This document shows, piece by piece, positions 6,236-33,153 of a stretch of DNA of 64,000 nucleotides (the stretch's first letter is position 1; each line of letters opens with the position of its first letter). A model generated the notes under the pieces. The model searched no databases. It was given only the letters and a program-made list of their open reading frames with translations, and had not been told where the DNA came from. A program made the position numbers and the translations under genes. Origin of the DNA: an uncultured Microbacterium sp. (GTDB lineage: Bacteria; Actinomycetota; Actinomycetes; Actinomycetales; Microbacteriaceae); the NCBI GenBank assembly GCA_964406995.1, contig CAYOTY010000001.1:8434-72433 (forward strand). The letters are read 5' to 3'.

Positions 6236-6994
6236 TCATTCTCGCGAACGGCGCGCAGCCTCGTCGAGAATGACCGACAACGTCTCCGGATCGTGTGCGA
6301 AACGACCGAGGAACAGTCCATCGACGGCGGCCCCCAACCGGTCGAGGAGGCCGGCGCCCGCACTGCCTCCGTACATCACCGCGGAGCCGGACCGCAGCTC
6401 GCCCGCCTTGCGCAACAGCTTCTGGAGCACCACGCAGACAGCGGAGATGTGCCCGACGGCAGCCGGTTCGGCCGCGCCGATCGCCCAGACGGGCTCGTAG
6501 GCGACGATCACCCGCCCAGGTGGCGCCTCCGCCAGCGCGGCCTGAAGCTGTGCAGCGCAGACCTCCGCCGCCTCTGCGGCCGAGGTCTCCGTCTGCTCGC
6601 CGACGCAGATCAGGGGCACCAGACCGTGTTCGATCGTCATGCGGGTCTTCGCAGCGACGACCGCATCGCTCTCGTCATGGTCACGGCGGCGTTCGGCGTG
6701 ACCGATCTCGACGATCCTGACACCGATCTCCGCGAGTTCGGCGGCGGTGACGTCACCCGTGTGAGCACCGGGGACGGAGGCGGCGACATCCTGAGCGGCG
6801 ACGACGACGGGAGTCTCGGCGAACACGGCCAGCGCTGCGGGGATCTGGAGGAAGGTCGGTGCGATGAAAAGCTCGACAGTCCCCGAGGCGACGGCCTCAT
6901 GCGCGACAGCCACTTCACGCACCTCACGGAACCAGGCCGTTGCGCGGGCATGCGAGAAATAGGTCTTGAGGCTGACGCCGATCACTGCAGACAT
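6236..6994 (-). CDS. lerI: Triosephosphate-isomerase-family protein, L-erythrulose-1-phosphate isomerase-like
   Basis: GHAERR and AYEPVWAIG TIM motifs with variant GVSLKTYF N-terminus; clustered with DAK kinase and RpiB. Confidence 0.8.
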   Translation of the reverse strand: MSAVIGVSLKTYFSHARATAWFREVREVAVAHEAVASGTVELFIAPTFLQIPAALAVFAETPVVVAAQDVAASVPGAHTGDVTAAELAEIGVRIVEIGHAERRRDHDESDAVVAAKTRMTIEHGLVPLICVGEQTETSAAEAAEVCAAQLQAALAEAPPGRVIVAYEPVWAIGAAEPAAVGHISAVCVVLQKLLRKAGELRSGSAVMYGGSAGAGLLDRLGAAVDGLFLGRFAHDPETLSVILDEAARRSRE

Positions 6995-7004
6995 CCGAGC
7001 TCCT

Positions 7005-7481
7005 TCAGCAGGAACCGGCGGTCTCGTACTCGCCGATGAGCGCGACCTTCTCGGCGCTCGCCGACGTACGGTCGAAACGATAGGTCAGCCACTCGCGCAC
7101 GAGGCGCCGAGCGAGCTCGATGCCGACGACGCGCTGGCCCATGCACAGCACCTGGGCGTCGTTGCTGAGCACCGAGCGCTCCACGGAGAAGGAGTCGTGC
7201 GCGGTGGCCGCGCGAATCCCTTCGACCTTGTTCGCCGCGATCGCCACACCGAGGCCGGTCCCGCAGATCAGCAGAGCACGGTCCGCCTCGCCACGAGCCA
7301 CGATCTCCGCAGCGGCGACGGCGACCTTCGGATAGGCGGTGTGTCCGTCCGCATCGACACCGACGTCGATGATCGAGGCGACGAGGTCACTGGCCCCGAG
7401 ATCGGTCTTGAGTATCTCCTTGTAATCGAATCCTGCGTCGTCACTGCCGACGACGATCCGGAGCCGGTCGAGCTCGGTCAT
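7005..7481 (-). CDS. derI: RpiB/LacAB family isomerase, D-erythrulose-4-phosphate isomerase-like
   Basis: Start corrected to ATG 7481 (TGATG overlap): [17 protein letters not shown]...[20 protein letters not shown]...SND. Confidence 0.8.
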
Positions 7482-9220
7482 CAGCGCTTCCCTTTCTCTT
7501 CGTCGTCGATGACGGCCGCCACCGCGGTCACTGCAAGCGCGAAGGACACCGCCCCCGCATCCGGCGTGCCGAGGCTGCGCTCGGCGTGGGGCCTGGCCCG
7601 GCCGCGGCGGGGCAGCAGATCGGCAGTCGCGATCGCCGCCTCCGTAGACGCCGCAGCGGCCGCCTCCCACGCCTCCGCGAGAGACGCCCCTGCCGCGACC
7701 GCCGCTGCGAGAACCCCGACGAAGGGCTCGACGGCATCTACCATCGTCTTGTCGCCCGGCTGTGCTCCGCCGACGGCGGTGAGTGCTTCCGCCGCAGCGG
7801 CGACGCCCTCGACCAGCGAAGAGCCCGTCACCGGCGCGGCATCGCCCACCCGACCGCCCAGCGTGCGCAGTATCAGGCCCCAGAGGGCCCCGGAGGTCCC
7901 GCCGGCACGGTCGGCCCACGCCTCTCCCGCACGCACCAGGACCGTCCCCGCGCCTGCCCCGCGGGCGGCCGTCTCGCGTGCGGCCTCCACCGCGGCAGCC
8001 GTACCGCGCTGCATCCCGATGCCGTGGTCGCCGTCTCCGGCGACCGCATCGATGCGCCCGAGCTCTCCGGCTGCGGCATCGATCGCCTGACGGACCGCCT
8101 CGAGTCCCGCGAGAGCCACCGCCGCCGCACGCACCGAGTCCTCGCCGGCCGGGGGCACGGTCTCCTCTTCCTCGTGCTCAGCCGCGACGGTCGCCGTCGC
8201 CGCCGCGCCGACGAGGGCCGCAGTGCGGAACGCCACCGAATCCGCCGGTGCCGCCCAGAGGCCTTCGAGCTCATCGTCGAGCCACAGGATCGTGAGGGAG
8301 AGCCCGGCCATGTCAAAGCTCGTGCAGAACTCCCCGACCTGGGGGTCGACGATGGTGAGTCCGGCAGATTCCAGTTCGCGCGCCACCGCGCCGTAGAGCA
8401 GGAAGAGCTCCTCGTGCTTGACCGTTCCCAGACCGTTGAGGAGTGGGACCACCCGGCATCCGGCCGGGGACTCCACATCATCGGGCCGCTCGTCCATCAG
8501 ACGCTCCACGAGCATCCGAGCCAGTTCTGCGGCATCCGGGATCTCGACCTCGGCGAGACCCGGCTCACCGTGGATTCCCATCCCCAGCCCCATCGTCCCC
8601 GCTGGCAGGGAGAACAGCGGTTCTTCGGCTCCGGGCAGAGTGCACCCGCCGAAGGCGACACCGAAAGTGCGGGTGCGATCGTTGGCGCGGATCGCCACTC
8701 TCTCGACCTCGTCCAGAGCACCACCGGCCTCGGCGAGGGCACCGGCGATCTTGAACACCACGAGGTCGCCGGCGACGCCGCGACGCAGTTCCCGCTGATC
8801 GCGCGGCGCGCTGGAGACATCGTCGGTGACGCGGACCGTGCGCACATCCAGCCCCTCGCCCCGCAGTGCGTGCTCGGCGGCATCGAAGTTGAGGACGTCA
8901 CCCGCGTAGTTCCCATAGGTCAGCAGCACCCCGCGTCCCGAGTGGACCGCACGCGCGACCGACTCGACCTGACGCGCCGAAGGGGAGGCGAAGACGTTTC
9001 CGGTCACCGCGCCGTCGGCGAGACCCGGCCCGACAAGGCCGATGAACGCCGGGTAATGCCCGGAACCTCCGCCGATGACGACAGCGGCCTTCTCCGCCAC
9101 CGGGGAGTCCCGGCGGACGACACCGCCGGAGACCCGCCGGACTCGTGGGGAGTTCGCGGCCACGAACCCCGTGACGACCTCCTCGACGAAGTCCTCAGGG
9201 GCGTTGAGCACATGGACCAT
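7481..9220 (-). CDS. lerK: Dihydroxyacetone kinase family (DAK1+DAK2 fusion), L-erythrulose kinase-like
   Basis: [46 protein letters not shown] motifs. Confidence 0.82.
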
Positions 9221-9283
9221 TCGACACTCCCGTCATAACCGCAGCAGACCAGGCTCCAGCCAACCAAGGAAGCCTCGCGCTCC

Positions 9284-9321
9284 CTAGCACCGTGATGTCA
9301 CGGCCTTGCACGACGCGGACA
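9284..9321 (-). promoter_or_regulatory. Tandem AraC/FeaR-type boxes upstream of lerK
   Basis: Minus strand TGTCC-N8-CAAG and TGACA-N8-CTAG at 21-bp period; no clear -10 at the usual distance. Confidence 0.55.
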
Positions 9322-9334
9322 GATGGAGACGCCC

Positions 9335-9847
9335 TCAGCCACGAGCAAGAAGAGAGGGGCGCCCCGTCTCAGGATCGATCGGGGCGGGATCACCCGCATC
9401 CGTCACGATCGGACCGGGAAGATTCGAGACCAGCTCGATCCTTGCGCCGAGCTCGGGGACCGGTTCGGTGAAGAACAGGAGCAGTCTTCCCTGCTCATCC
9501 GTGTTCGATCCGTTCATCGCGAAGCCGAGGGAGTCCAGCCGGGCACGCTCGGACTCGACGTCGTCGAGCCCGAGGAACGCGAGGTGGTGCGGGCCGAGAT
9601 TCTCCTTCGAGTGGGTCCCCTCGCCCGTCACCTCGAGCAGCTCGATGCGCGGCGGCCCATCGAAGGAGATCGCGAACCGAGCGTCGTGCGGATGCGGATG
9701 CGGATCGCTGGCGTCCTCCCACCGGTCGGTGCGATACCGGCCGATCTCCGAGAAGCGGTAGCCCGTCGCCCTGCTCCAGCGCTCGATCGCGGCTTCGAGA
9801 TCGTCGACGAGGATCCCGATGTGGTGGACGGGCGGGAGCAGGGTCAC
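9335..9847 (-). CDS. VOC/glyoxalase family protein (methylmalonyl-CoA epimerase-like), paralog B
   Basis: GTG 9847 overlaps the upstream stop; HHIGILV...IELLE...HHLAF...IELV metal-ligand pattern. Confidence 0.85.
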   Translation of the reverse strand: MTLLPPVHHIGILVDDLEAAIERWSRATGYRFSEIGRYRTDRWEDASDPHPHPHDARFAISFDGPPRIELLEVTGEGTHSKENLGPHHLAFLGLDDVESERARLDSLGFAMNGSNTDEQGRLLLFFTEPVPELGARIELVSNLPGPIVTDAGDPAPIDPETGRPSLLARG

Positions 9848-10377
9848 ACCGTCTCCTCCGGAACCGGGGGACCCCACAGGCTGTTGCGTCCGGTCTCCGG
9901 ATCGACCCACAGTGCACTGCCGTCGTCGGCGACCGTCGGTCCGGGAAGCGGGGAGACGAACTCGAGACGCACTCCGTCCAGATCCTGCTTGCGGGTGAAG
10001 CAGAGAAGGATCTCGCCGTCATCGGTCACGGCGCGACCGTCCTCGCCGATCCCCATCTGCGCGAGCTCGGCCAGCCGGCCCTCGCAGTCGGGGGTGCCGG
10101 GGAAGCCGAAGTGGTGGATCCCTGCTTGCTCGGATCCATGCGTGCCGACTCCGGTGATCTCCATCAGCTCGATCCGGGGAGGCCCTTCCTTCGAGAAGGA
10201 GATCCGGGCGTCGTGGAAATGGGGCTCGGGGTCGCTGTGATCGATGTAGTTCGAGGTGCGGTAACGCGCGATGGGGCTGAACGTGTAGCCGGTCGCGGCG
10301 CTCCAGCGTTCGATGGCCTCCTCGAGGTTGGGGACGAGGATTCCGATGTGCTCGATGAGCGGAGGCGAAGAAGTCAA
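9844..10377 (-). CDS. VOC/glyoxalase family protein, paralog A
   Basis: EHIGILV...IELME...HHFGF...LEFV; clearly homologous to the neighbouring gene. Confidence 0.85.
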   Translation of the reverse strand: MTSSPPLIEHIGILVPNLEEAIERWSAATGYTFSPIARYRTSNYIDHSDPEPHFHDARISFSKEGPPRIELMEITGVGTHGSEQAGIHHFGFPGTPDCEGRLAELAQMGIGEDGRAVTDDGEILLCFTRKQDLDGVRLEFVSPLPGPTVADDGSALWVDPETGRNSLWGPPVPEETV

Positions 10378-11531
10378 AGGATCTCCAGTTCGGCGCGTCG
10401 ATCGACGCAGTGGCGTATGGCGGACAGAAGAGTGTCGAATCCCATCCCTGCACCCATCTGGGGCGGGAAGCGGCTGGTGGTGTAACCGATGGCCAGGCCC
10501 GACTCCGGATCGGCGAGGGCGACACTGCCACCTGCACCCTCATGCCCGTAGGAGGACGGTGAGAGCAAGGGAAGCTGGGGGAAAGGCAGCTGGACCCCGG
10601 AACCGAAGCGGATCGGGATGCCGAGCACGGCGTCGATCCCCCAGCTGCGCTCGGCGACGAGCTCTTCCCGCGCCGACTCGCTCAGCACGCGAATGCCGTC
10701 GACGGCTTCCATCGTCGCGGCCATGCACCGTGCGAGCGCATGAGCAGAGCCCACTCCTCCCACGGCGAGCCAGCCGGCACGGTGGAAGAGCGGGTGGTTG
10801 TAGACGTCGAACTCGCGCGCCAGCCGACCGATGTGTCCCGGCGGGATCGTCGCGCTCGCGGCCACCGCGACCGCCCTTTCGGTCGCCGCGATCCTCGGGC
10901 GGAGCACAGGCTGGACGCGCGCCGATTCTGACTCGGGCACCCCGAACCAGAAGTCGAGGCCGAGCGGTTCGGCGATCTCCTCCGCGAACAGCTCCCCGAC
11001 TCCCCGACCGATCGTCCGCCGGACGACGCCGTCCAGCAGCGTCCCATAAGAGAAGGCGTGATAACCGTGCCGCGTCCCCGGCTCCCAGTACGGCTCCTGT
11101 GTTGCGACCGCCGCGTCGTCCTCGCCCGAGACGAGCTGCTCGAGATCGAGGGTCGCATCGACGGCCGGAATCCCCGTCCGGTGGGACAGCACCATTCGCG
11201 TCGTGATCTTCGCGGTCGAGCGCTTGGCGAACTCCGGCCAGACGTCGGCGAGCGGGGCGTCGAGATCCAGCAGGCCGCTGTCGTGCAAGCGCATGGCGAC
11301 GATCGCCGCGATCGCCTTAGAGACGGAGAACACCGATTGCAGCGCGTCGTCGGGGTAGTCGCCGGCGACGAGGTCGACGACCGCCGAGCCCTCCCGATAG
11401 ACCGTGAGGGCGACTCCGCCGCAGTCCTGTACCGCCGCGATCCGGCCGAGGATGTCACGGATCTCGGCGAACTCGCCGAGCGTCGTCCCGCGTACGGGGA
11501 CGATCTGCGTCGGTGGCAGGGCGTACGACAC
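10374..11531 (-). CDS. Beta-lactamase-fold serine hydrolase (family VIII carboxylesterase-like)
   Basis: FSVSK (SxxK), LSHRTG, WEPGTRHGYHA, GHEGAGG; start placed at GTG 11531 (TTG 11537 is an alternative). Confidence 0.85.
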   Translation of the reverse strand: MSYALPPTQIVPVRGTTLGEFAEIRDILGRIAAVQDCGGVALTVYREGSAVVDLVAGDYPDDALQSVFSVSKAIAAIVAMRLHDSGLLDLDAPLADVWPEFAKRSTAKITTRMVLSHRTGIPAVDATLDLEQLVSGEDDAAVATQEPYWEPGTRHGYHAFSYGTLLDGVVRRTIGRGVGELFAEEIAEPLGLDFWFGVPESESARVQPVLRPRIAATERAVAVAASATIPPGHIGRLAREFDVYNHPLFHRAGWLAVGGVGSAHALARCMAATMEAVDGIRVLSESAREELVAERSWGIDAVLGIPIRFGSGVQLPFPQLPLLSPSSYGHEGAGGSVALADPESGLAIGYTTSRFPPQMGAGMGFDTLLSAIRHCVDRRAELEIL

Positions 11532-11533: not shown

Positions 11534-12532
11534 TCAACCCAGCAGCGGCTCGAGCTCGGAGCGGTAGAACGCAAGACCCTGCACCAGTTCGCCGATGGGG
11601 TCGAAAGAGTTGTCGATCTCCTCGATCGCCCAGCCGGACCACTCCGCGTCGCGGAGGATGCGCATCCATTCCCGCCAGTCGACGGTTCCACTGCCGAGGA
11701 TGCGGAAGTAGGTGAGCATGACATCATGCCGCTCTTTGGGGTCTCCGAGGAGGGTGTGCCCTCCGAGATGACCGATACAGTCCTTCCAGTGCATGGTCGG
11801 GATGCGGTCGATGTGCTCGCGCAGCACGGCGACGGCATCTCCGCCGTCGAGGGTTATGTGTCCGGCGTCGGGGCACAGCTGCACCGTGTCGGGGTCGGTC
11901 AGCGACAGCACCGTTGCGATGTCCTCGTTGCGGCAGCAGATCGAGTAGGCATCCGTGTGGATCGCCATCTTCACACCGTAGGGACGGAGGATATCGCCGA
12001 GACGATTCATATGCTCGGCATAGCGCTCGTGCGTCTCCCTCGGGACGGGCGCGAGGAAGTCCTCGGCCCGCGCCTGATGCTCTGTGAGGTCGTAGGCGAA
12101 CTTGGCTCGCGGGATATTGCCGAAGGTGATCGTGTTCGCACCGAGCTCGACGAGGAACTCTGCGTGACGGCGGATGTAGTCATCGGCGCGGGCGACGAGG
12201 GAAGAGTCCTCCATCGCCTCGCCGACATAGACTCGACCCGCGCCATAGCTCGAGGTGAGCTGAAGCCCACGCTGCTCGAGCGCCTCCTTGAACCCGGCTG
12301 CCGAACCGTAGGCGATGAGGGTGCCCTCGAAGCCGCCCGGGTCCGGGGCGAGCTCGACCCCGGTCAAGCCTGCGTCGCGGACGCCGTCGAGCATGCCGTC
12401 GAAGTACCGCCGGGGATCCTTGTTGAACTCGGCCGTCCACTGCGGGTGCTTGAGCTTGGGAGGGAGCCCCCAGTAGGCGCTCTCGAAGAACGTGATGATG
12501 TTCGCACCGAAGCGGATCCGCTCCGAGGTCAC
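11534..12532 (-). CDS. Sugar phosphate isomerase/epimerase family TIM-barrel metalloenzyme (IolE/LgdB-like)
   Basis: GVELAP, AIHT, CPDAGH, MHWKD, LGSGTVDW, EEID motifs; GTG 12532 overlaps the upstream stop. Confidence 0.85.
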   Translation of the reverse strand: MTSERIRFGANIITFFESAYWGLPPKLKHPQWTAEFNKDPRRYFDGMLDGVRDAGLTGVELAPDPGGFEGTLIAYGSAAGFKEALEQRGLQLTSSYGAGRVYVGEAMEDSSLVARADDYIRRHAEFLVELGANTITFGNIPRAKFAYDLTEHQARAEDFLAPVPRETHERYAEHMNRLGDILRPYGVKMAIHTDAYSICCRNEDIATVLSLTDPDTVQLCPDAGHITLDGGDAVAVLREHIDRIPTMHWKDCIGHLGGHTLLGDPKERHDVMLTYFRILGSGTVDWREWMRILRDAEWSGWAIEEIDNSFDPIGELVQGLAFYRSELEPLLG

Positions 12533-13677
12533 CGTGCACTCCGCACTGCCTGGGGCACGTCGACCCATTGTCCGGTCTGCGCCGACTCGGCGACAGCATC
12601 CATGACCTGCTGGACGTGGAGGGCCGTGGCGAAGTCGGGCCGGACGACGTCGTCGCCGCCAACGATGGCGCGGACGAACTTCTGGAACTGAATCGCCGAG
12701 ATCTCGATGTAGCCGAGACCGAGGCCGGCCAGTCTCCACCACCCGTCCGGATGCTCGGTGTTGGTGTGTATGGTGCGGAACCCCCTGTGGTCGGCCGCCT
12801 CGTCGACATAGGAGACCCTGAACTCCTCGCGGTGGTTCCAGTCGAACTGAACCGAGGCTCGGCTGCCGTCGAGCTCGAAGTAAAGACGATTCTTACGGCC
12901 GGAGGAGTAGGAGCTGGCCGAGAAGGAGCCGATGGCACCGGAGGCGAACTCGCAGATCCACGCACCGCCTTCGTCGATGAGATCCTCGCCGAGGCGGACG
13001 GACTCGTCCCGCCAGCCGTTGTCGGCGCCCGGGTCCTTGGACCGCAGCATCGCACTGACTCGTGTGATGTCGCCGAGCAGGTAGACAGCAGCGTCGACGA
13101 CGTGCGAGCCGATGTCGCCGGACGCCCCGGAACCGCCCGTCTTCTTCTGCGCACGCCAGCGGTTCGGATCGGTGAGGTAGAACCCCACTTCCTGCAAGTA
13201 GGTTCCCCGGAACATGAGCGGCTTTCCGAGCTGACCCCCGTCGAGAAGCTTCTTCGCGAAGGCGATAGCCGGGGTGTGCCGATAGTTGAAGCCGACCTGG
13301 TTGACGGTACCCGCCCGCTCAGCGGAGGCCACCATGTCGGCGGCCTCGGCCGCATCATTGGTGATCGGCTTCTCGCAGAAGACATGCTTCCCTGCGGCGA
13401 AGGCTGCTTCCGCGATCTCCTCGTGGAATTGCGGCGGAGTGCAGATGTCGATGATATCGATGTCTTCACGTGCCACGATCTCACGCCAGTCCGTCGCCCA
13501 CTCGTCCCAGCCGAGGCGGGCGGCAGCATCCTCGGCGACCTCGGCGTCGGTGTCGACGAGGACCTTCTTCGTGATGCGGGCGCCGATCGGAGCGCCCAGG
13601 GGGGCGATGGCGTAGGCGAGGCTGTGCGCCTGGCCCATGAAGCCGCCGCCGATGATGGCAATGTTCAGATTTCTCAC
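12529..13677 (-). CDS. Gfo/Idh/MocA oxidoreductase, levoglucosan-dehydrogenase-like
   Basis: IIGGGFMGQAHSLAY, CEKP, FNYRHTPA, FRGTYLQ, GDIGSH, RGFRTIHT, LGLGY match levoglucosan dehydrogenase motifs as recalled. Confidence 0.88.
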   Translation of the reverse strand: MRNLNIAIIGGGFMGQAHSLAYAIAPLGAPIGARITKKVLVDTDAEVAEDAAARLGWDEWATDWREIVAREDIDIIDICTPPQFHEEIAEAAFAAGKHVFCEKPITNDAAEAADMVASAERAGTVNQVGFNYRHTPAIAFAKKLLDGGQLGKPLMFRGTYLQEVGFYLTDPNRWRAQKKTGGSGASGDIGSHVVDAAVYLLGDITRVSAMLRSKDPGADNGWRDESVRLGEDLIDEGGAWICEFASGAIGSFSASSYSSGRKNRLYFELDGSRASVQFDWNHREEFRVSYVDEAADHRGFRTIHTNTEHPDGWWRLAGLGLGYIEISAIQFQKFVRAIVGGDDVVRPDFATALHVQQVMDAVAESAQTGQWVDVPQAVRSAR

Positions 13678-25952: not shown

Positions 25953-25979
25953 TGACACGTGTACATGTACACGTGTACA
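25953..25979. promoter_or_regulatory. Two adjacent LacI-type operators (TGACACGTGTACA, TGTACACGTGTACA) overlapping the araC-2 -10 (TACACT)
   Basis: 22-bp perfect palindrome ACACGTGTACATGTACACGTGT at 25955-25976. Confidence 0.7.
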
Positions 25980-26012
25980 CTGCCTCAAAGACCACTCAAA
26001 GATGAGATTGCC

Positions 26013-26813
26013 ATGTTCGCCACCACCGAGTCCTCCCCGCTTCGCGCCATCCGCGCCGGCGAAGGGCGCTGGGCGCTCTCCTATCTCACCGAGACCGCCA
26101 GTCATTGCCTGATCCTCTGCGAGAGGGGCACTCTCCGGGTGGAGGAGGATGGTGCAGCCTGGGTGCTTCCCGAGCGACACCTCCTCCTCATCCGGCCCTG
26201 TCGGGGGAGCATAACGGTGCCTCCCGGCGGCTCGGCAGCAGTCCTCTCCCTCGCCCGGGCGATCACCGCACCGCACCGCGCCGACCTCGACCGCGCAGTG
26301 GGGATCATGGTGGCCGCCGACGGCGACGGGACTCTGGTCGCCCACCTCGTCGCCGCCCTCTTGACCGAACCGGGCCTGGACTCCGGGAACATGGCCGTCT
26401 TCGCGCACCTCACAGGCATGATCGCGATGATGTGCCGCGACATCGCGCCTTTCGACATCGACATCCCTTCGATGCGCCGCGCTCTTGAGACCATGGAGCA
26501 GCGGCTCGGCGACCATGACCTCAACCCGGAGGCGATCGCACGATCGGCGAACGTCTCCACACGCACCCTTCACCGCATGTTCGAGCTGCGAGGCACCACA
26601 GTAGGCGCCTGGCTCCGGAGCCAGCGCCTGGCGCACTGCTGCGCGGACCTCCAGCACAGGCCGGACCTTTCCGTGCAGCAGATCGGTGCACGCTGGGGGT
26701 TCTGGGACGCCCCCCACTTCAACCGTACGTTCAAGCAGACCTTCGGCGTCCCGCCCGGCGAGTACCGCAGGCGTAGTGCCGCTCGGACAGTGCGGGAGCA
26801 GACCGCGATCTGA
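26013..26813 (+). CDS. AraC family regulator (FeaR-type), AraC-2
   Basis: VSTRTLHRMF...QRLAHC...IGARWGFWDAPHFNRTFKQTFG; ATG 26013 preferred because the track start 25959 lies in the operator. Confidence 0.88.
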   Translation: MFATTESSPLRAIRAGEGRWALSYLTETASHCLILCERGTLRVEEDGAAWVLPERHLLLIRPCRGSITVPPGGSAAVLSLARAITAPHRADLDRAVGIMVAADGDGTLVAHLVAALLTEPGLDSGNMAVFAHLTGMIAMMCRDIAPFDIDIPSMRRALETMEQRLGDHDLNPEAIARSANVSTRTLHRMFELRGTTVGAWLRSQRLAHCCADLQHRPDLSVQQIGARWGFWDAPHFNRTFKQTFGVPPGEYRRRSAARTVREQTAI

Positions 26814-26828
26814 ATCCCGCCGGCGCTC

Positions 26829-27833
26829 TCAGGCCGAACGGCGCGGAATGACCTCGAGCAGGGAACTCCCGTCGAACTCGGGCAGGTCACGGTCGTCGAG
26901 GAGAGCCATGACCGACTCGACTCCGGCCTCGATGAGGCGCTTGACATCGATGCGCACGGTCGTGAGCTCGCCCCGCGCGGGTGCGAAGTCGTCGATCCCG
27001 ATGAGGGCGAGGTCCTCCGGAACCGCATATCCCGCATCTCTCACCCCTGCGGCGACCGCGAGGGCAAGAAGATCGCTGTAGGCGCAGACCACCGACACGG
27101 ACTCCTCCCCCGCCAGCCATGTCGACACCGCCTCCTCCACGCCCGCACCGTCCTGATCGATCACGCAGACTACCGGCGGGGGAAGCCCGTGCTCGCGGCA
27201 TGCGGCCCGCACACCCTCAAGACGTTCGGAGGCGATGGGGCCGGCCGCGGGATCCATCGGGAACGCGTAGCCCAGACGCCGGTGCCCCCGCGAGACGAGA
27301 TAGTCCACCTGCATCCGCCCCATCCGCTCGTGCGGCAGCAGCGTGCGCATGCTGAAGAGCTTCGCGTCCGAATGCTGGATGGAGCTGATGTCCGGGATGG
27401 TCAGACCACCGACGGAGATCACCAGCGCAGGCTGCACGAGCGGCCAGAGTTCCGCAAGCGGACGACCCTGACCCGTGTACCGATGCACGAGCAGTGCCAT
27501 GCCGCGCTCGCCGATCGCCGCGTCGAACGCGTCGAGAAGTGCGTCGGTGATGGGGCCGACGCCGAATCCGGGCACGAGAGCGACGACGATGTTGCTCCGC
27601 CCCAGACGCAGTGCGCGAGCCGGTGCATAGGGGACATGCCCCAGCTCCGCCGCCGTACGAAGCACGAGATCACGAGTCGCCTCCGCGATAGGCCGGGTAG
27701 TGGAGTTGTTGAGCACATAGCTCACCGTCGCTCGCGACACTCCTGAGGCACGTGCAACGTCCGCGCTCGTCACCCGACGGCGGGCATCCGCCCCGGAACC
27801 CGAGGAACCCTTCACCACGCCCTCCTCTCGCAT
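26829..27833 (-). CDS. LacI family transcriptional regulator, LacI-2
   Basis: VTSADVARASGVSRATVSYVLN; paralog of LacI-1; start uncertain (about 27815-27833). Confidence 0.9.
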   Translation of the reverse strand: MREEGVVKGSSGSGADARRRVTSADVARASGVSRATVSYVLNNSTTRPIAEATRDLVLRTAAELGHVPYAPARALRLGRSNIVVALVPGFGVGPITDALLDAFDAAIGERGMALLVHRYTGQGRPLAELWPLVQPALVISVGGLTIPDISSIQHSDAKLFSMRTLLPHERMGRMQVDYLVSRGHRRLGYAFPMDPAAGPIASERLEGVRAACREHGLPPPVVCVIDQDGAGVEEAVSTWLAGEESVSVVCAYSDLLALAVAAGVRDAGYAVPEDLALIGIDDFAPARGELTTVRIDVKRLIEAGVESVMALLDDRDLPEFDGSSLLEVIPRRSA

Positions 27834-27900
27834 CGATGCAGCTGGCGATCCTTCGATACTGCGGGCGACCACCGACCGTAGAGAACCCATCACGTCGACC

Positions 27901-27965
27901 TGTCCGTACCGGACAACATTCTCGCACTCTCGGGCAACGCCGACACCGTGAGCCGTTCCTATCGT
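27901..27965 (+). promoter_or_regulatory. AraC-type promoter of ABC operon 2
   Basis: TGTCC-N8-CAAC and TCGCA-N8-CAAC at 21-bp period, 21 nt, TATCGT. Confidence 0.6.
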
Positions 27966-28004
27966 GAAGACACCCGCCGAGCACCAACACACGAAGGAGT
28001 GGAA

Positions 28005-29306
28005 ATGAGAAGGACAGCACTGTTCACTGCGATAGCGCTCGCCGCGACGATGGCATTCACCGGATGTGCTGCATCCGGTGACCCCGCCGAGTACGACCCC
28101 GACGAGGCGACGGGAGCCTTCGACTGGAAGCGGTACGAGGGCGCCGAGATCCACGTGCTCGCCGGCCGTAACGCCTGGCAGGAGCGCATCGAAGCGAGGA
28201 TCCCCCAGTTCGAGGAGCTCACCGGCATCAAGGTGACCGTGGAGTCGCTCGTGGAGGAGCAGTTCTATCAGAAGCTGCAGGTCGAGCTCTCCTCCGGCTC
28301 TGATGCGGTCGACGTCTACGCAGCTGCCGGCCAGCTCAACGGCTTGCGCTTCTCGCAATCGGGATGGTTCCAGGACCTTCAGCCCTACGTCGACAACCCC
28401 GCACTCACCTCCCCGGACTATAACTTCGACGACATCAGCTCGGGCATCCTCGAAGCCGGGAGCTTCGACGGAGAGCTCTACATCCTCCCCACTCTCGTCG
28501 AGGTCCAGATGCTGTACTACCTGAAGGACAAGCTCGAGGAAGCCGGGATCGAGCCACCCACCACAGCGGAAGAGCTCGAAGCCGCGGCCGCTCTGCTCAA
28601 CGATCCTGAGAACGGTGTTCACGGCATCGGCCTGCGCGGCAAGCGCGCTCCGCTGACCAGTCAGTTCGGAAGCTTCCTCGTCAACTTCGGCGTCGATTAC
28701 ACCGATGCCGAAGGCAACGCAGGCTTCGACAACCAGGGCGGTGTCGACGCCTTCGACCTGTACGGGCGTCTGCTGCGCAACTCCGGTCCCTCCGGTTCCG
28801 TCAACAACGGCTGGGAGGAGCTCCTCGCCCTCTTCCAGCAGGGAAAGCTTGCGATGTGGGCGGACAACTCCAGCCTCGCCAGCCAGTTCCTCGATCCCGA
28901 GAAGTCGACCGTCTACGACAATGTGGGCTTCGCCGAGATGCCCACCGGGCACACCTTCTTCGGGTGGGGCATCGCGATGAACCCGGCCTCGAGCAAGAAG
29001 GGACCTGCATGGCTCCTGATGCAGTGGATGACAAGCCCGGAGATCGTCGAGGATCTGCAGGCGGACGGCGTCCCCGGTGCCCGTGAGTCGATCGGGTTCC
29101 CGGCCGACACGAACCAGGAGTTCGCCGAGGTCTTCCTCGCGACGATCCCGGATGCTTCACCCCAGCTGCCCAACGTCATCCAGGTTCCCGAGGTGCGAGA
29201 CATCATCGGCGATGCGATAGCGGTGTCGATCGAGGGCGGTGATGTCGCCCGGGCCGTGTCCGAAGCAGCGGCAGCGATGAACCAGGTCATTTCGACCGGG
29301 CAGTGA
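28005..29306 (+). CDS. Sugar/polyol ABC transporter substrate-binding lipoprotein
   Basis: MRRTALF...FTGC lipobox after AAGGAG; FDWKRYEG and GIGLRG features. Confidence 0.9.
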   Translation: MRRTALFTAIALAATMAFTGCAASGDPAEYDPDEATGAFDWKRYEGAEIHVLAGRNAWQERIEARIPQFEELTGIKVTVESLVEEQFYQKLQVELSSGSDAVDVYAAAGQLNGLRFSQSGWFQDLQPYVDNPALTSPDYNFDDISSGILEAGSFDGELYILPTLVEVQMLYYLKDKLEEAGIEPPTTAEELEAAAALLNDPENGVHGIGLRGKRAPLTSQFGSFLVNFGVDYTDAEGNAGFDNQGGVDAFDLYGRLLRNSGPSGSVNNGWEELLALFQQGKLAMWADNSSLASQFLDPEKSTVYDNVGFAEMPTGHTFFGWGIAMNPASSKKGPAWLLMQWMTSPEIVEDLQADGVPGARESIGFPADTNQEFAEVFLATIPDASPQLPNVIQVPEVRDIIGDAIAVSIEGGDVARAVSEAAAAMNQVISTGQ

Positions 29307-29310
29307 CACG

Positions 29311-30291
29311 ATGACCGACCTGAAGAACCGACGCGCGGCTTCGTCGGCGACGCAGGTGGGGCCGGGACCCGAGAGGTCCCGGCCCCAGCGCCGTCGCACG
29401 ATCAGCACCTTCGTCGAACGCCATATCCTCCTCGTCTTCGCAGGACCCGCCGTCGCCTTCATCGGCGCGATGATGGTGTTTCCCATCGGCTACACCCTCG
29501 TCCTCTCGACGCTGCGGTGGAACGGGAGTCGCGGAGTCACACCCCAGTTCATCGGCCTGGACAACTACACGCGCCTCCTCTTCGAAGACGACCGCTTCTG
29601 GGGTGCACTGTGGCGTACGGTCGTCTTCACCGGCGGTGCCGTAGCGGCACAGACCGTCATCGGCGTGGCCCTCGCGGTCTTCCTGCACCGGCAGTTCGTC
29701 CTGCGGGGCATCGTCCGCAGCTTCATGCTGCTGCCGATGATCGCAACCCCGGTCGCCATCGCTCTGGTCTGGCGGCTCATGTTCAATCCGCAGCTGGGCA
29801 TCTTCAACGACATCCTCACCAACCTCGGTCTCCCGCCGAGCGATTGGGTCTCCGATCGAGCGCTCGCGATGCCGCTGATCATGCTCGTAGACACATGGGA
29901 GTGGGCGCCGCTGATCGCACTCATCACCCTCGCGGGGCTCTCGGCACTGCCGACCGACCCGTTCGAAGCCGCCGCCATCGACGGCGCCGGGCCATGGCAG
30001 CGCTTCTGGCACATCACCTTGCCCATGGTCAGGCCCGTGCTCGTCATCGCGATCGTCTTCCGCCTCATCGAAGCGCTCAAGACCTTCGACATCATCTTCG
30101 TGCTCACCCAGGGCGGACCCGGCTTCTCCACCGAGACCCTCAATATCTACGCCTACGCCTCGGCGTTCCAGTACCAGCAGATGGGATACAGCGCCGCTCT
30201 GCTCGTGGTCTTCTTCCTCCTCGTCCTCGTCATCTCCAGCGGCATGCTGCGTCTGCGGCGAGCCCGCGAGAAAGGAGAAATCCGTGCCTGA
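29311..30291 (+). CDS. Sugar ABC transporter permease
   Basis: EAAAIDGA, TQGGPG. Confidence 0.93.
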   Translation: MTDLKNRRAASSATQVGPGPERSRPQRRRTISTFVERHILLVFAGPAVAFIGAMMVFPIGYTLVLSTLRWNGSRGVTPQFIGLDNYTRLLFEDDRFWGALWRTVVFTGGAVAAQTVIGVALAVFLHRQFVLRGIVRSFMLLPMIATPVAIALVWRLMFNPQLGIFNDILTNLGLPPSDWVSDRALAMPLIMLVDTWEWAPLIALITLAGLSALPTDPFEAAAIDGAGPWQRFWHITLPMVRPVLVIAIVFRLIEALKTFDIIFVLTQGGPGFSTETLNIYAYASAFQYQQMGYSAALLVVFFLLVLVISSGMLRLRRAREKGEIRA

Positions 30292-31174
30292 ACCCGCAAC
30301 GACCACCGCCGCCCGTCCAGCGGTCTCACCCTCCGCGCATCAGCGCCGCGCCCAGCGCCGACGTCGCCGGGCGCTCCGAGGCACCGTGTTCTACACGGCG
30401 ATCGTGCTGACGTTCATCCCGTTCCTGTTCGTCTTCTACTACATGATCGCGACGTCGCTGAAAGCTCCTCTCGACATCAGCTCGCCCGACTACCTGTGGA
30501 TCTTCACGCCGACGATGGACAACTACCGTGCGGTCTTCGAGCAGACCGAGTTCCTCCGGTACATGATCAACTCGCTCATCGTCGGCTTCGGCTCCGTCGC
30601 GCTCGGAATGCTGCTGGGGGTTCCCGCCGCATACGCGATCGCACGGCACCGGGCCTCGAAGCTCGGACTGCTGATCCTCTCCTCCCGGGTGACCCCCGGG
30701 ATCACCTTCCTCGTACCGTGGTTCCTCATCTTCAGTCGGATCGACCTGACGAACACGTTCCTCGCGCTCATCCTGGTTCACACGGTGATCACACTGCCCC
30801 TGATCTGCTGGCTCATGATCGGTTTCTTCGAGGAGATCCCTCAGGAGCTCATCGACTCGGCACTCGTCGACGGTGCGACGACCCTCCGCGCTCTGTGGAG
30901 CATCATCCTGCCTGTGACGAAGGGAGGTCTCGCCTCTGCGGCGATCCTCGCCTTCATCTTCTCCTGGAACCACTTCCTGTTCTCGATCGTCATCGCAGGC
31001 AGGGACACCCGTCCCCTCCCGGTCGCCGTCTTCGAGTTCATGTCCTACGGCCAGGTCAACTGGGGCGCCATCGCCGCAGCGGCAACCGTCATGACTCTGC
31101 CGGTCATCGTGATCGCGATGTTCGTCCAGCGTCACATCGTCCAGGGGCTCGCCGGAGGCGCGGTCAAGGGATGA
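30284..31174 (+). CDS. Sugar ABC transporter permease
   Basis: DSALVDGA, SWNHF, GAVKG C-terminus. Confidence 0.93.
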   Translation: MPEPATTTAARPAVSPSAHQRRAQRRRRRALRGTVFYTAIVLTFIPFLFVFYYMIATSLKAPLDISSPDYLWIFTPTMDNYRAVFEQTEFLRYMINSLIVGFGSVALGMLLGVPAAYAIARHRASKLGLLILSSRVTPGITFLVPWFLIFSRIDLTNTFLALILVHTVITLPLICWLMIGFFEEIPQELIDSALVDGATTLRALWSIILPVTKGGLASAAILAFIFSWNHFLFSIVIAGRDTRPLPVAVFEFMSYGQVNWGAIAAAATVMTLPVIVIAMFVQRHIVQGLAGGAVKG

Positions 31175-31746
31175 GCACGATCACCACCGATGCAAGAACA
31201 TTCACACGAGGAGAACCACTGACCATGATCGACCGACCCGCCGAGCAGATCGCCTACGTGACCCATGAGCTGGATCGCACCGTCGCCGACCTCGGACGCA
31301 CGCTCGGCATCCGCCGCTGGCGAGCCTGGACATTCGACAATGCCTTCCTGCGCTTCACCGAATACCATTCGCAGCCCGCGGACATCTCCTCGGTCGTGGC
31401 CATGCCCGAGTTCGGGGCGAGCATCGAGGTGATCCAGCCCCTCCTCGGACCGAGCATCTACACGACCTTCCTCGAGGAGCGTGGTGAGGGCCTCCACCAC
31501 ATCGGCTATTTCGTCGATGACCTCGCCGCAGAACGCGCAGCCTGGTCAGAGCGCGGATTCCGCGAGATCTTCCGCGGGGGCGGGCACGGGCTGGACGGGG
31601 ATGGCGAGTTCCTGTTCATCGACACCATGGATGCCCTCGGCTCCTACGTCGAGGTCATCTCGCCTCCCCGGCGCAGAAGCGAACCGCACTTCAGGATCGA
31701 ACTCGACGAGGGATGGCGCCCTACGCGGATCGACCGGGACGCCTGA
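31171..31746 (+). CDS. VOC family protein (methylmalonyl-CoA epimerase-like)
   Basis: ATGA overlap with the permease; QIAYV, IEVIQP.GPSIY..FL...GEGLHHIG, VEVI (ATG 31225 is an alternative). Confidence 0.85.
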   Translation: MSTITTDARTFTRGEPLTMIDRPAEQIAYVTHELDRTVADLGRTLGIRRWRAWTFDNAFLRFTEYHSQPADISSVVAMPEFGASIEVIQPLLGPSIYTTFLEERGEGLHHIGYFVDDLAAERAAWSERGFREIFRGGGHGLDGDGEFLFIDTMDALGSYVEVISPPRRRSEPHFRIELDEGWRPTRIDRDA

Positions 31747-31754
31747 GGTCCGTG

Positions 31755-31806
31755 TGGCCGATCCCGCAGGCTCCGACCGCGTGGCGGGGACCTGCGGGAT
31801 CGGCCA
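31755..31806. terminator. Probable bidirectional terminator between convergent genes
   Basis: 16-bp perfect IR TGGCCGATCCCGCAGG/CCTGCGGGATCGGCCA. Confidence 0.65.
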
Positions 31807-31865
31807 TGCCGTCCTACCGTGATCCGCACGCCTCACCGGTTCGGGCGGGCGCTCCGGAGGCCGGC

Positions 31866-33053
31866 TCACGCAGTCGTTGAGATCTCCGTGGTAGCGGCAG
31901 CCGCACCCTCGAGCAGATCGTGGAGAAGCGTCCGGCGCTCTTCGAGCTCGATCTCGGGACCGGCGTCGAGCAGGAGGATGAGTTCGAGGACGACGACGCC
32001 CGTGGCATCCCGAACGGGAGCGGCGAGGAGACGTATCGTCTCAGCCGTCAGGCCTTCCTCCGTCTCGTAGATCGCCGAGCGCTTCCGGATCAGCTCGTGC
32101 AGTCGGCGCTCGACCTGCGGCGTATAAGCCCCCTGCGAGAACTGAGCCAGCGCCGAATCCCATTCATCGAGCCAGGGATCGTCCATCGCCATCGACCATC
32201 CGCGCACCCGGACTCGATCGAGCATCGCGGCGAACTCCCCGCGCGACTCGTCGTCCCACGCTCGCGCCAGCCACTCCTCGGAGAGCATGGGATCTTCCGC
32301 GACGAAGAGCGAGCCCAGCGGAGGCACCCGGGGCATCCTCCGCCCCACGTAGGAGGCGCGGACGTTGTCGTCGCTTCCCACCGCACTCGCGAGGAGGACC
32401 AGTTCCTCAGCGATGGATCCGAAGACGAGGACCGTGCGTCCCGTCCTGGCGGCGATGGCCTCGATCGGTTCCCGCGCGGCCTCCACCGCCCGCAGGGAGG
32501 GGATCAGCTCCTTCTCGTTCGGCATGACCAGGGAGAGCGGGGTGAAACGCCCGTAGCCGCCCTGGAAGAAGAGAAGCGGCAGCTGCGGCTCCGGTGCCGC
32601 CATCTGAATCACGCGACCCATGACGATGTCATGATCGCCACCGTCGTAGCGCTGCTCGAGATCACACTCGATCCAGGCCACGCAGCCGTCGATCACGGGA
32701 GTCCCCGAGTCGGTCGTCGACCATGCGACGCCGTCGAGCTTGCGGGGGTCTCTCGAAGCCAGCCGTCGGCAGAGCTGCTCCTGGTCCGCAGCCAACACGC
32801 TGATCGCGAATCGTTGCGAGTTCCTGAGCCGCGCGTAGCTGGAAGAGCTCTTCTGGGGCAGGTAGGCCACGAGCGGAGGATCCAGCGAAACCGACACGAA
32901 CGAGCCGACGACCATCGCGATCGGCTCGCCTTCCTCGCTACGCGCCGTGACGACGACCACGCCGGTGGGATAGTGCCCGAGCACCTCGCGAAACCACAGC
33001 GGCTCCGGCGCCGCCCCGACCGCTGCAGACCCGAGCGCCGACTGTTCGGTCAT
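31866..33053 (-). CDS. Flavin reductase fused to a C-terminal IclR-effector/GAF-like domain
   Basis: N-terminal FREVLGHYPTGVVVVT, SVSLDPP, GGDH, PLLFFQGGYG; C-terminal VGRRMP..PPLG, VRVRGWS, LAAPVRD. Confidence 0.88.
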   Translation of the reverse strand: MTEQSALGSAAVGAAPEPLWFREVLGHYPTGVVVVTARSEEGEPIAMVVGSFVSVSLDPPLVAYLPQKSSSSYARLRNSQRFAISVLAADQEQLCRRLASRDPRKLDGVAWSTTDSGTPVIDGCVAWIECDLEQRYDGGDHDIVMGRVIQMAAPEPQLPLLFFQGGYGRFTPLSLVMPNEKELIPSLRAVEAAREPIEAIAARTGRTVLVFGSIAEELVLLASAVGSDDNVRASYVGRRMPRVPPLGSLFVAEDPMLSEEWLARAWDDESRGEFAAMLDRVRVRGWSMAMDDPWLDEWDSALAQFSQGAYTPQVERRLHELIRKRSAIYETEEGLTAETIRLLAAPVRDATGVVVLELILLLDAGPEIELEERRTLLHDLLEGAAAATTEISTTA

Positions 33054-33088
33054 TCTGGGAACACCTCCGGGTATCCTCTTGCCCTACG

Positions 33089-33153
33089 AAGATATGCGCG
33101 ACGCCCGTGTCCGGGCTTGCGCCGGGAGGGCATCGGATTGCGCGTGAGCGACT
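33089..33153 (-). promoter_or_regulatory. AraC-type promoter of the flavin reductase
   Basis: AGTCG-N8-CAAT and TGCCC-N8-CAAG at 21-bp period, 21 nt, TATCTT. Confidence 0.6.

Follow-up and report, generated by a model that had tools for sequence, protein, structure and literature searches.

A 28-kb gene island for predicted oxidative catabolism of a sugar-like nutrient in an uncultured Microbacterium sp. and its relatives

Introduction

Which nutrient is consumed, and by what chemistry, by a gene island that carries two sugar-type ABC importers together with oxidoreductases, isomerases, and an esterase, and has no recognizable glycoside hydrolase? This question is raised by a 64,000-nt stretch of DNA (referred to here as the window) from an uncultured Microbacterium sp., which belongs to a genome assembly of 3.0 Mb in 255 contigs that is 83% complete (GenBank assembly GCA_964406995.1; contig CAYOTY010000001.1, positions 8,434 to 72,433). 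In the original prediction, made from the sequence of the window, the genes at positions 6236 to 33153 were proposed to form a co-regulated system in which an imported glycoside or N- or S-linked sugar conjugate is cleaved by oxidation and a C4 fragment enters the pentose phosphate pathway. The analysis described here indicates that a 28-kb region of the window is a real gene island for the catabolism of a sugar-like nutrient, by oxidation rather than hydrolysis, and that, judging by comparison of gene neighborhoods, it extends a compact, widely distributed cluster, with the monooxygenase system as an add-on. The favored general scheme, to which a probability of about 60% is assigned, would lead from a CUT1-type importer through the Gfo/Idh/MocA-family dehydrogenase GFO1, a TIM barrel, and VOC and esterase enzymes to erythrulose and, finally, to erythrose 4-phosphate.

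Extent and gene content of the island

Because the G+C content of the window is 65 to 72%, genes were called by codon-position G+C, each candidate was checked with Pfam and NCBIfam, and over-long open reading frames (ORFs) starting at the first ATG were corrected from the start-codon and ribosome-binding-site context (Table 1). Every gene type listed in the original prediction was found where it had been placed: two sugar ABC importers, an NtaA/DmoA-family monooxygenase (NtaA), a flavin reductase, a relative of levoglucosan dehydrogenase (GFO1), a TIM barrel, a family VIII esterase, three VOC proteins, two 2-hydroxyacid oxidoreductases (the D-isomer-specific dehydrogenase 2HADH and an FAD/FeS oxidase), a DAK-family kinase with its RpiB- and TIM-family neighbors, and paired LacI and AraC regulators. 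The absence of glycoside hydrolases likewise held, with no match to any glycoside hydrolase family on any called ORF. The right end of the proposed extent had to be moved to position 34177, because orthologues of the second Gfo/Idh/MocA oxidoreductase, GFO2, sit inside both of the other islands described below. No tRNA genes were found at the island borders, no aldolase family appeared among the Pfam and NCBIfam matches of the cluster, and none of the catabolic enzymes of the island reached an NCBIfam equivalog cut-off.

Related islands in Microbacterium invictum and Mycetocola

The original prediction had expected these genes to co-occur elsewhere, and nearly the whole set is indeed clustered in M. 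invictum and Mycetocola sp. 2940. The complete genome of M. invictum contains a 29-kb stretch with almost all of the same families in a different order. Its first part encodes NtaA (76% identity to the window protein), LacI1, the binding protein SBP1, two permeases, 2HADH (77%), GFO2 (61%), and the MFS transporter; this is continued by VOC2 (79%), the esterase, the TIM barrel (76%), GFO1 (78%), and AraC1 and then by divergent genes for a VOC protein and the FAD/FeS oxidase (72%). A same-strand run encodes a binding protein, two permeases, a second 2HADH (58%), a second NtaA (55%), TIM, RpiB (83%), DAK (57%), and the flavin reductase fusion (67%). The block of the window that consists of LacI2, AraC2, importer 2, and VOC3 has no counterpart in M. 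invictum. An ISL3-family transposase gene (positions 14767 to 15813 of the examined stretch) directly adjoins the M. invictum island at its flavin reductase end, and the flanks of this island are unrelated to those in the window. In Mycetocola sp. 2940, a member of a different genus, the set is found in a third gene order that ends with DAK-RpiB; the TIM gene and the reductase fusion are missing from that island. Because the genes stay together in three genomes despite rearrangement and differing flanks, and share operator and box motifs, they are regarded as a functional unit, and the region is probably a horizontally mobile island for catabolism, found in Microbacteriaceae and assembled around an actinobacterial core cluster that is itself widespread.

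The full island set is rare. Proteins matching NtaA at an E value of 1e-120 or less were found in 4 of the 200 Microbacterium species sampled, with an island-type copy (76% identity) only in M. invictum and the other three, at about 50% identity, in a different context. Among 400 Microbacteriaceae species sampled, three had matches at E values of 1e-130 or less, all from one other genus and 52 to 56% identical. Pattern scans and the protein database yielded island-type NtaA (at least 70% identity) otherwise only from Mycetocola sp. 2940 and as 4 database proteins, and none was found in a scan of JGI metagenomes. Homologues with 50 to 57% identity are encoded in unrelated contexts, beside aldehyde dehydrogenases.

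The widespread core cluster

A smaller part of the island is far more common. With the TIM-barrel alignment as an anchor (homologues 45 to 69% identical), 27 genome loci, mostly from Actinomycetota, were found and compared with all island proteins; anchoring on GFO1 alone gave almost no loci, the peptide patterns being too specific, and anchoring on NtaA gave only Mycetocola sp. 2940 as a useful hit. The core that emerges from these loci, whose hosts are relatives and not independent samples, comprises a CUT1 importer, LacI and AraC regulators, the DAK-RpiB-TIM trio, GFO1, the IolE-like TIM barrel, the family VIII esterase, and a VOC protein. Of the 27 loci, 25 combine GFO1, TIM barrel, and esterase, and a VOC2 orthologue is usually present as well; permeases of the importer 1 type (at least 49% identity) are encoded in 17, and 17 have DAK and/or RpiB-TIM genes no more than 10 kb away. 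In Dactylosporangium sp. CA-233914, 12 genes on one strand, in the order permease-permease-SBP-LacI-AraC-DAK-RpiB-TIM-GFO1-TIM barrel-esterase-VOC, fill 12.7 kb. Similar arrays are present in Georgenia, Rhodoglobus, Protaetiibacter, Pseudolysinimonas, a Micromonosporaceae isolate, Acrocarpospora, Arthrobacter, and Pseudarthrobacter, as well as in metagenome bins labeled Acidimicrobiia and Gemmatimonadetes. Except for Mycetocola, none of the 27 core loci contains NtaA, 2HADH, the FAD/FeS oxidase, or the reductase fusion.

A gene of the isocitrate/isopropylmalate dehydrogenase family adjoins the core in Rhodoglobus (positions 12657 to 13850 of the locus) and Pseudolysinimonas (positions 2002 to 3120) and might encode a pathway-linked decarboxylating dehydrogenase.

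The kinase/isomerase trio

The left end of the island is formed by genes for a fused Dak1-Dak2 kinase, an RpiB-family isomerase, and a paralogue of triose-phosphate isomerase (TIM), separated by gaps of 10 and 20 nt. The kinase passes a family-level model (NF011049; 710 bits, cut-off 492), whereas the TIM paralogue stays far below all TpiA equivalog cut-offs in NCBIfam. RpiB, whose orthologues are 66 to 85% identical between clusters, scores 136 bits with the rhizobial DerI model, below its cut-off of 240. The source genome encodes a second DAK-RpiB-TIM trio (contig C7, positions 338 to 4970; 57 to 85% identical to the island trio). A divergent GntR/FCD regulator and a PF01261 TIM barrel of the trio's own, in an EryC-like position, precede it. 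The same second trio is present in M. invictum (positions 3043533 to 3046463), which has, apart from its two trios, a third TIM, 36% identical and presumably housekeeping. Because of this second trio and the separate TIM of M. invictum, the island TIM and RpiB, as judged by sequence comparison, are specialized extra paralogues and not housekeeping copies.

A fused Dak1-Dak2 kinase gene contiguous with TIM and RpiB paralogues distinct from the housekeeping copies is thus what the island contains, and erythrulose routes are characterized by just such a contiguous set of kinase, RpiB, and TIM paralogue, namely, the routes of erythritol/threitol utilization, D-apionate route 3, and the D-ribonate route (PMC13753588). 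Linkage of the trio to the oxidoreductase/TIM-barrel module in 17 of the 27 loci therefore fits a C4 ketose that is sent, by analogy with these routes, to erythrose 4-phosphate and the pentose phosphate pathway. The C4 fragment of the original prediction thereby gains support from synteny in many genera; synteny and analogy are what this part of the scheme is built on.

The AraC1-GFO1-TIM barrel-esterase-VOC operon

Next to the trio, the genes for AraC1, GFO1, the TIM barrel, the esterase, VOC2, and VOC1 run from position 14693 down to position 9335 with 4-nt overlaps or a 2-nt gap between neighbors. Among solved structures, GFO1 is most similar to levoglucosan dehydrogenase (Protein Data Bank [PDB] entry 6a3f), followed by unassigned oxidoreductases and scyllo-inositol/L-glucose dehydrogenase. 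Its translationally coupled neighbor is a PF01261 TIM barrel; an AlphaFold2 model of this protein (pLDDT of 92.7) has IolE (3cny and 9zmu) as the nearest solved folds, followed by UlaE, 2-hydroxy-3-keto-glucal hydratase, ketose 3-epimerases, and 3-keto-glucoside lyase, all at 18% identity or less, and its NCBIfam matches are limited to the IolE, CbiR, and L-ribulose-5-phosphate 3-epimerase models. The esterase combines the beta-lactamase fold with the S-x-x-K motif of family VIII carboxylesterases, and its best solved relatives are carboxylesterases. VOC2, the best-conserved enzyme of the core, has H10, E70, H88/H89, and E139 as invariant residues in the alignment of orthologues; this H/E/H/E set we take to be a metal site with four ligands, as in glyoxalase I and methylmalonyl-CoA epimerase, rather than the three-ligand site of extradiol dioxygenases. 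PDB and NCBIfam sequence searches with the esterase, the VOC proteins, 2HADH, and the binding proteins returned family-level matches only.

Comparison with known systems

The combination of genes had been proposed not to correspond to any described pathway, and no gene-for-gene match was found in the literature or among curated models: literature searches found no paper on this combination, and the levoglucosan, tetritol, ribonate/apionate (compared by published description only), sulfoquinovose, and riboflavin pathways all failed to match it. The closest parallel to the oxidative module is the levoglucosan pathway LgdA-LgdB1-LgdB2-LgdC of Bacillus smithii, Pseudarthrobacter, and Paenarthrobacter (PMC7676230, PMC10066097), in which, as in the island, a Gfo/Idh/MocA dehydrogenase is encoded beside a PF01261 TIM barrel and a CUT1 importer and no hydrolase is involved; the Lgd pathway is a published precedent for oxidation followed by elimination, and GFO2 could play the role of LgdC. 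The island differs by its esterase, VOC proteins, and DAK-RpiB-TIM trio, none of which is part of the Lgd pathway (PMC7676230, PMC10066097), whose end product is glucose and not a C4 ketose. Assignment of GFO1 as LgdA was rejected: it scores 368 bits with NF052479 (cut-off 650) and 310 bits with 6a3f, and the threshold used in the LgdA similarity network is more than 60% identity (PMC10066097). The corresponding dehydrogenase of the Pseudarthrobacter phenanthrenivorans H3 cluster reaches only 244 bits with 6a3f, which comes from the same species, and is thus distinct from levoglucosan dehydrogenase; because of this homologue and the failed cut-off, GFO1 is considered a paralogue of LgdA.

The parallel for the other end of the scheme is provided by tetritol and erythrulose catabolism. 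Tetritol routes with LerK/DerK, LerI, and DerI have reportedly been described in Mycobacterium smegmatis and Brucella (Huang et al., 2015, and Barbier et al., 2014). A fused DAK kinase contiguous with TIM (LerI/EryH) and RpiB (DerI/EryI) paralogues is found in these routes and in the island, with erythrose 4-phosphate as the predicted end (PMC13753588), whereas the upstream enzymes of the island are entirely different; a tetritol utilization cluster was rejected, with no ADH_N, ADH_zinc_N, or adh_short match on any island ORF and no EryA or EryB. The logic of the ribonate and apionate routes resembles that proposed here: in the D-ribonate route (Rib2D-OrnI-decarboxylation-DerK) and D-apionate route 3 (ApnO-OiaC-LerK-EryH-EryI), a sugar acid is converted through a 3-oxo acid to erythrulose, which is processed by DerK or LerK and isomerases (PMC13753588, citing Luo and Huang, 2018, and Carter et al., 2018). 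The steps in common would be oxidation, a shift of the keto group, loss of one carbon, and phosphorylation and isomerization of a tetrulose, and the island has a dehydrogenase, a possible lactonase, an isomerase-type TIM barrel, and the same kinase/isomerase funnel; the likeness to Rib2D, OrnI, ApnO, and OiaC is one of pathway logic.

Other systems share single elements. The pairing of a Gfo/Idh/MocA dehydrogenase with an IolE-type enzyme recalls IolG-IolE of myo-inositol catabolism, which was rejected on the scores of GFO1 (102 versus 355 bits, TIGR04380) and the TIM barrel (104 versus 290 bits, TIGR04379) and the absence of IolD, IolB, IolC, and IolJ. The sulfo-SMO cluster likewise has an FMNH2-dependent luciferase-like monooxygenase and a separate flavin reductase beside a sugar-type ABC importer; it was rejected with SsuD-type models at 37 to 45 bits, no GH31 sulfoquinovosidase, and a match of SBP2 to SmoF of only 60 bits. 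The riboflavin (Rca) pathway was also rejected, the match of NtaA to riboflavin lyase (172 bits) being weaker than those to YtnJ and nitrilotriacetate (NTA) monooxygenase, and the island reductase differs from those of the NtaA/DszA/RcaE-type two-component systems by its extra putative IclR_C domain.

Already known, therefore, are all of the protein families, the oxidize-then-eliminate logic, and the erythrulose funnel. No paper was found that describes these elements together with a beta-lactamase-fold esterase and a VOC protein, or the expansion by the two-component NtaA system, and no curated model claims these proteins.

Proposed route and its alternatives

In the favored scheme, for which we infer the substrate and every chemical step from the observed gene content, conserved clustering, and operator motifs, the CUT1 importer would take up a neutral sugar-like solute, and GFO1 would oxidize a ring hydroxyl to a ketone with NAD. 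The IolE-like TIM barrel could then dehydrate or beta-eliminate the keto compound to an enediol or dicarbonyl intermediate, to be rearranged and hydrolyzed by VOC2, whose putative metal-dependent site of the glyoxalase I/epimerase type suits enediolate chemistry, and by the esterase, which might cleave a lactone, ester, or acyl group. This step would shed one or two carbons as a small acid or CO2 and leave erythrulose, which the DAK kinase and the TIM and RpiB paralogues would convert to erythrose 4-phosphate. In a close variant that follows the ribonate/apionate logic, GFO2 would serve as the aldose 1-dehydrogenase, the esterase as the lactonase, GFO1 as the aldonate dehydrogenase, and the TIM barrel as the keto-isomerase, followed by decarboxylation; if the tetrulose arises from a 3-oxo-pentonate, it should, given the TIM paralogue, be L-erythrulose, which would suggest that the precursor is an L-pentonate or resembles D-apionate. 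As to the class of substrate, the best guess is a pentose, branched or not, or else a lactone or glycoside of such a sugar, and any particular substrate is much less probable than the scheme as a whole. It is conceivable, although on balance doubtful, that the core formed by GFO1, TIM barrel, VOC protein, and beta-lactamase-fold hydrolase represents an undescribed C-C-cleaving sugar route that yields erythrulose and a C1 or C2 acid by a glyoxalase-like or retro-Claisen reaction, with the islands adding a ligand-gated two-component flavin monooxygenase as a second entry for a conjugated form.

Several observations weigh against this scheme. Given that no equivalog cut-off is reached, every chemical step is a family-level guess, and for enzymes of these folds there is no direct precedent for either the step order or the C-C cleavage. 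RpiB passes the model of the ordinary actinobacterial ribose-5-phosphate isomerase (TIGR02133, RPI_actino; 208 bits, cut-off 168), and DAK-family kinases phosphorylate dihydroxyacetone and glyceraldehyde too. Ten of the 27 core loci have no DAK, RpiB, or TIM gene within 10 kb. In M. aoyamense DSM 19461, an SBP-permease-VOC-VOC-GFO1-TIM barrel-esterase module (positions 320 to 5955) lacks the trio and is followed by genes for a 703-residue fusion of an NHL/beta-propeller with an inosine-uridine nucleoside hydrolase, an amidase, and two PfkB kinases, so that the end route supplied by the module may vary. Finally, the TGNCN9CAAG box (see below) is only partly conserved in the M. invictum and Mycetocola islands and not enriched across either stretch as a whole, and its core heptamer GCAAGSC occurs in the window about as often as expected (17 matches versus 17.2).

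The missing trios also bear on the idea that the island is a mosaic of independent sugar and polyol operons without a common substrate (a tetritol-type trio, an Lgd-like module, two importers, and a monooxygenase set). The occurrence of the GFO1 module without the trio in 10 loci, the second trio elsewhere in the genome with its own TIM barrel and GntR regulator, the shuffling of gene order between genomes, and the extra ABC2-LacI2-AraC2-VOC3 block would all fit a mosaic. However, the genes have stayed together even though they were rearranged, acquired different flanks, and passed from genus to genus; several distant genera have the core genes in one array on the same strand, and operators of the same type are present at both araC genes, so that such a mosaic is unlikely.

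The substrate range of DAK kinases and the RpiB score are also compatible with a retro-aldol alternative, in which DAK and TIM handle trioses, the front end splits a ketose or branched sugar into dihydroxyacetone and/or glyceraldehyde for glycolysis, and RpiB is a rare-sugar isomerase; the TIM gene does match triose-phosphate isomerase models. The scores of the TIM protein, though, are far too low for any TpiA equivalog model, a separate TIM of the housekeeping type is present in M. invictum, the contiguous kinase-RpiB-TIM paralogue set is the signature of erythrulose routes (PMC13753588), and the cluster has no aldolase family. This makes the retro-aldol alternative very unlikely.

If correct, the erythrulose scheme would represent a carbohydrate route that nobody has assigned, encoded in many soil- and plant-associated actinobacteria, in which the oxidize-then-eliminate opening of a sugar is joined to the erythrulose-to-erythrose 4-phosphate funnel. 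It would add new reactions to the beta-lactamase-fold esterase and VOC families and explain orphan levoglucosan dehydrogenase paralogues that are mislabeled by current annotation. The hosts include named strains (M. invictum, M. aoyamense DSM 19461, Georgenia thermotolerans NBRC 104148, Protaetiibacter mangrovi, and Mycetocola sp. 2940), which makes the question directly testable in culture.

Accessory oxidative genes

In the original prediction, NtaA was the enzyme that cleaves the N- or S-linked conjugate. NtaA passes TIGR03860 and has a partner flavin reductase (PF01613), as expected for the NtaA/DmoA subfamily; its relatives include the NTA and ethylenediaminetetraacetate (EDTA) monooxygenases, DszA, DmoA, YtnJ, and riboflavin lyase. 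Central cleavage of an N-, S-, or O-linked sugar conjugate by NtaA, with hydroxylation next to the heteroatom and the other enzymes processing both fragments, would be in keeping with the C-N, C-S, and N-ribityl bonds cleaved within this family and with the nucleoside hydrolase domain and amidase encoded next to the M. aoyamense GFO1 module, which hint at N-linked substrates. NtaA also heads, behind 2HADH, the operon of a core-type importer, and the second NtaA-2HADH-ABC set of M. invictum directly adjoins TIM-RpiB-DAK and the flavin reductase. Nevertheless, these genes are not part of the core in 26 of its 27 loci, island-type NtaA was found in 1 of 200 Microbacterium and none of 400 Microbacteriaceae species sampled (beyond these, only in Mycetocola sp. 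2940 and the 4 database proteins), its homologues at 50 to 57% identity occur in unrelated contexts, and Mycetocola does without the reductase fusion. A central role of NtaA is therefore improbable. Because the NtaA system is missing from the widespread core, NtaA, the flavin reductase fusion, 2HADH, and the FAD/FeS oxidase are accessory and do not provide the central cleavage step; the core oxidation is more likely NAD-dependent and carried out by GFO1.

Within the erythrulose scheme, the genes that the core has gained in the three islands, which also include GFO2 and additional transporters, may either let a related or conjugated substrate enter by a second route or serve to remove an acid by-product. 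The run FlavRed-DAK-RpiB-TIM-NtaA'-2HADH'-ABC in M. invictum suggests NtaA and 2HADH as an alternative front end to the same funnel, and a task of the FAD/FeS dehydrogenase and its VOC partner may be the removal of a by-product, either a 2-hydroxyacid or an oxoaldehyde. Orthologues of the FAD/FeS oxidase are 72 to 74% identical in the M. invictum and Mycetocola islands, and the protein scores 386 of the 1350 bits needed for the YdiJ model. GFO2 orthologues are 61 to 62% identical in these two islands and 49 to 51% identical in several core clusters.

The source genome has further copies of two of these genes: one for the FAD/FeS oxidase (contig C16, positions 26377 to 29136; 63% identity) and one for 2HADH (contig C36, positions 2492 to 3538; 60% identity), which adjoins genes for a GNAT protein, an ASCH-domain protein, and another luciferase-like monooxygenase.

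The flavin reductase carries a 216-residue C-terminal extension, and solved structures match its N-terminal reductase domain only. The original prediction had described this protein as a fusion with an IclR-type domain. Pfam gives no sign of such a domain here, PF01614 (IclR_C) having no match in the window protein or its M. invictum orthologue even at an E value of 10; the reading is nonetheless reasonable because many full-length homologues (43 to 48% identity) carry both PF01613 and PF01614, and the nearest Atlas (language-model) clusters have IclR_C in 30 to 41% of their members. A total of 1398 proteins match at E values of 1e-30 or less, most of those listed being about 390 residues long. 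The architecture is common in actinobacteria, where it is unstudied.

Regulation and transport

Expression of the island appears, from the placement of its operators, to proceed via a LacI-to-AraC cascade. The pattern TTACACGWKTAA, with up to 2 mismatches, has 9 matches in the window versus 1.0 expected; one lies inside GFO1, and the rest make up two tandem pairs, one for each araC gene, an arrangement that fits LacI-type repressors controlling the AraC genes. M. invictum and Mycetocola have related sites in the region that corresponds to the one between araC1 and the FAD/FeS oxidase gene in the window.

A second motif, TGNCN9CAAG, has 10 matches in the window versus 4.29 expected, a number reached in none of 100 shuffles of the sequence, although the pattern was derived from the same data. 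Eight of the 10 sites are in the island, 7 of them in sense orientation. The original prediction had this motif link seven units; all seven sense sites were found, but with corrected gene starts those at positions 20123 and 21906 fall within the first codons of SBP1 and Perm1a, which leaves five credible promoter boxes, ahead of DAK, NtaA, 2HADH, the flavin reductase, and GFO2. The 2HADH box is also present in M. invictum and Mycetocola, and some boxes are followed after about 20 nt, close to the start codon, by a TAGCGT-like hexamer. The box is thus a plausible, sequence-based regulatory link. The heptamer GCAAGCC is also found at positions 37577 to 37583, just upstream of a glycine-betaine ABC operon (opuA-like, positions 34343 to 37555), so this portion of the box may belong to promoters more generally. 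Sigma-70 and terminator scans of the window were uninformative.

Importer 1 is of the type found in the widespread core and is encoded, with LacI1, in a run from position 24501 down to position 17774 (2HADH, NtaA, two permeases, SBP1, LacI1). Importer 2 was found in the version of the island from this genome only; the best solved relative of SBP2 is 4rya, a binding protein deposited as '(Sorbitol)'. Neither importer has an ATPase gene of its own, and both binding proteins have lipoprotein signal sequences.

Table 1. Features of the island and their positions in the window
Feature	Position	Strand	Remarks
TIM-family paralogue, candidate LerI/EryH-like tetrulose-phosphate isomerase	6236-6994	-	PF00121, 177 bits
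RpiB-family isomerase, candidate DerI/EryI-like enzyme	7005-7460	-	PF02502, 152 bits
DAK, fused Dak1-Dak2 ATP-dependent kinase of the erythrulose or dihydroxyacetone kinase family	7481-9220	-	PF02733 and PF02734
Box TGTCCGCGTCGTGCAAG	9305-9321	-	Upstream of DAK
VOC protein 1 (Glyoxalase_4)	9335-9847	-	Start corrected; 4-nt overlap with VOC2
VOC protein 2	9844-10377	-	Orthologues 59-80% identical
Family VIII (beta-lactamase-fold) serine esterase	10374-11531	-	PF00144, 188 bits; SVSK at residue 69
Xylose-isomerase-like TIM barrel (AP_endonuc_2), IolE-like	11534-12532	-	PF01261
GFO1, Gfo/Idh/MocA dehydrogenase, levoglucosan dehydrogenase paralogue	12529-13677	-	310 bits to 6a3f
AraC-family regulator 1	13674-14693	-	4-nt overlap, translationally coupled to GFO1
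Tandem LacI-type operators, 14-mer CTTAATCGTGTAAG twice	14770-14799		Between araC1 and the FAD/FeS oxidase gene
FAD-linked oxidase with 4Fe-4S and CCG domains	14861-17767	+	D-2-hydroxyacid, D-lactate, or glycolate dehydrogenase type
LacI-family regulator 1	17774-18763	-
CUT1 ABC importer 1	18860-21923	-	Lipoprotein SBP1, 18860-20140; permeases, 20177-20998 and 21000-21923
NtaA/DmoA-family FMNH2-dependent monooxygenase	22038-23363	-	Accessory; TIGR03860, 446 bits (cut-off 279.7)
2HADH, D-isomer-specific 2-hydroxyacid dehydrogenase	23446-24501	-	Accessory
Box TGGCAGCGGAATGCAAG	24531-24547	-	Ahead of 2HADH
MFS transporter (CynX/NimT-like)	24621-25847	-	Not listed in the original prediction
Tandem LacI-type operators	25953-25978		At araC2 start
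AraC-family regulator 2	25959-26813	+	Divergent from the MFS transporter
LacI-family regulator 2	26829-27818	-	Divergent from SBP2
CUT1 ABC importer 2	27948-31174	+	Polyol-type SBP2, 27948-29306; permeases, 29311-30291 and 30284-31174
VOC protein 3	31180-31746	+	Start approximate
Flavin reductase with putative IclR_C-type ligand-binding domain, no helix-turn-helix	31866-33053	-	Accessory; PF01613, 143.9 bits
Box TGCCCTCCCGGCGCAAG	33116-33132	-	Ahead of the flavin reductase
GFO2, second Gfo/Idh/MocA oxidoreductase	33158-34177	-
Box TGGCGCGCACGCGCAAG	34210-34226	-	Ahead of GFO2

Other features of the window

Between an MMPL gene and the left end of the island lies an ORF of 269 residues (positions 5394 to 6203) with a strong coding bias (third-position G+C of 0.92) and no Pfam or NCBIfam match. 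The intergenic region between the MFS and araC2 genes contains an inverted repeat (positions 25875 to 25930; 26-nt arms, 92% complementary, 4-nt loop) that adjoins the tandem LacI-type operators and is a candidate operator, attenuator, or bidirectional terminator. Two further hairpins, a perfect one of 13 nt between SBP1 and lacI1 (positions 18808 to 18845) and an imperfect one of 25 nt between the convergent VOC3 and flavin reductase genes (positions 31746 to 31815), are terminator-like, with no T-tract.

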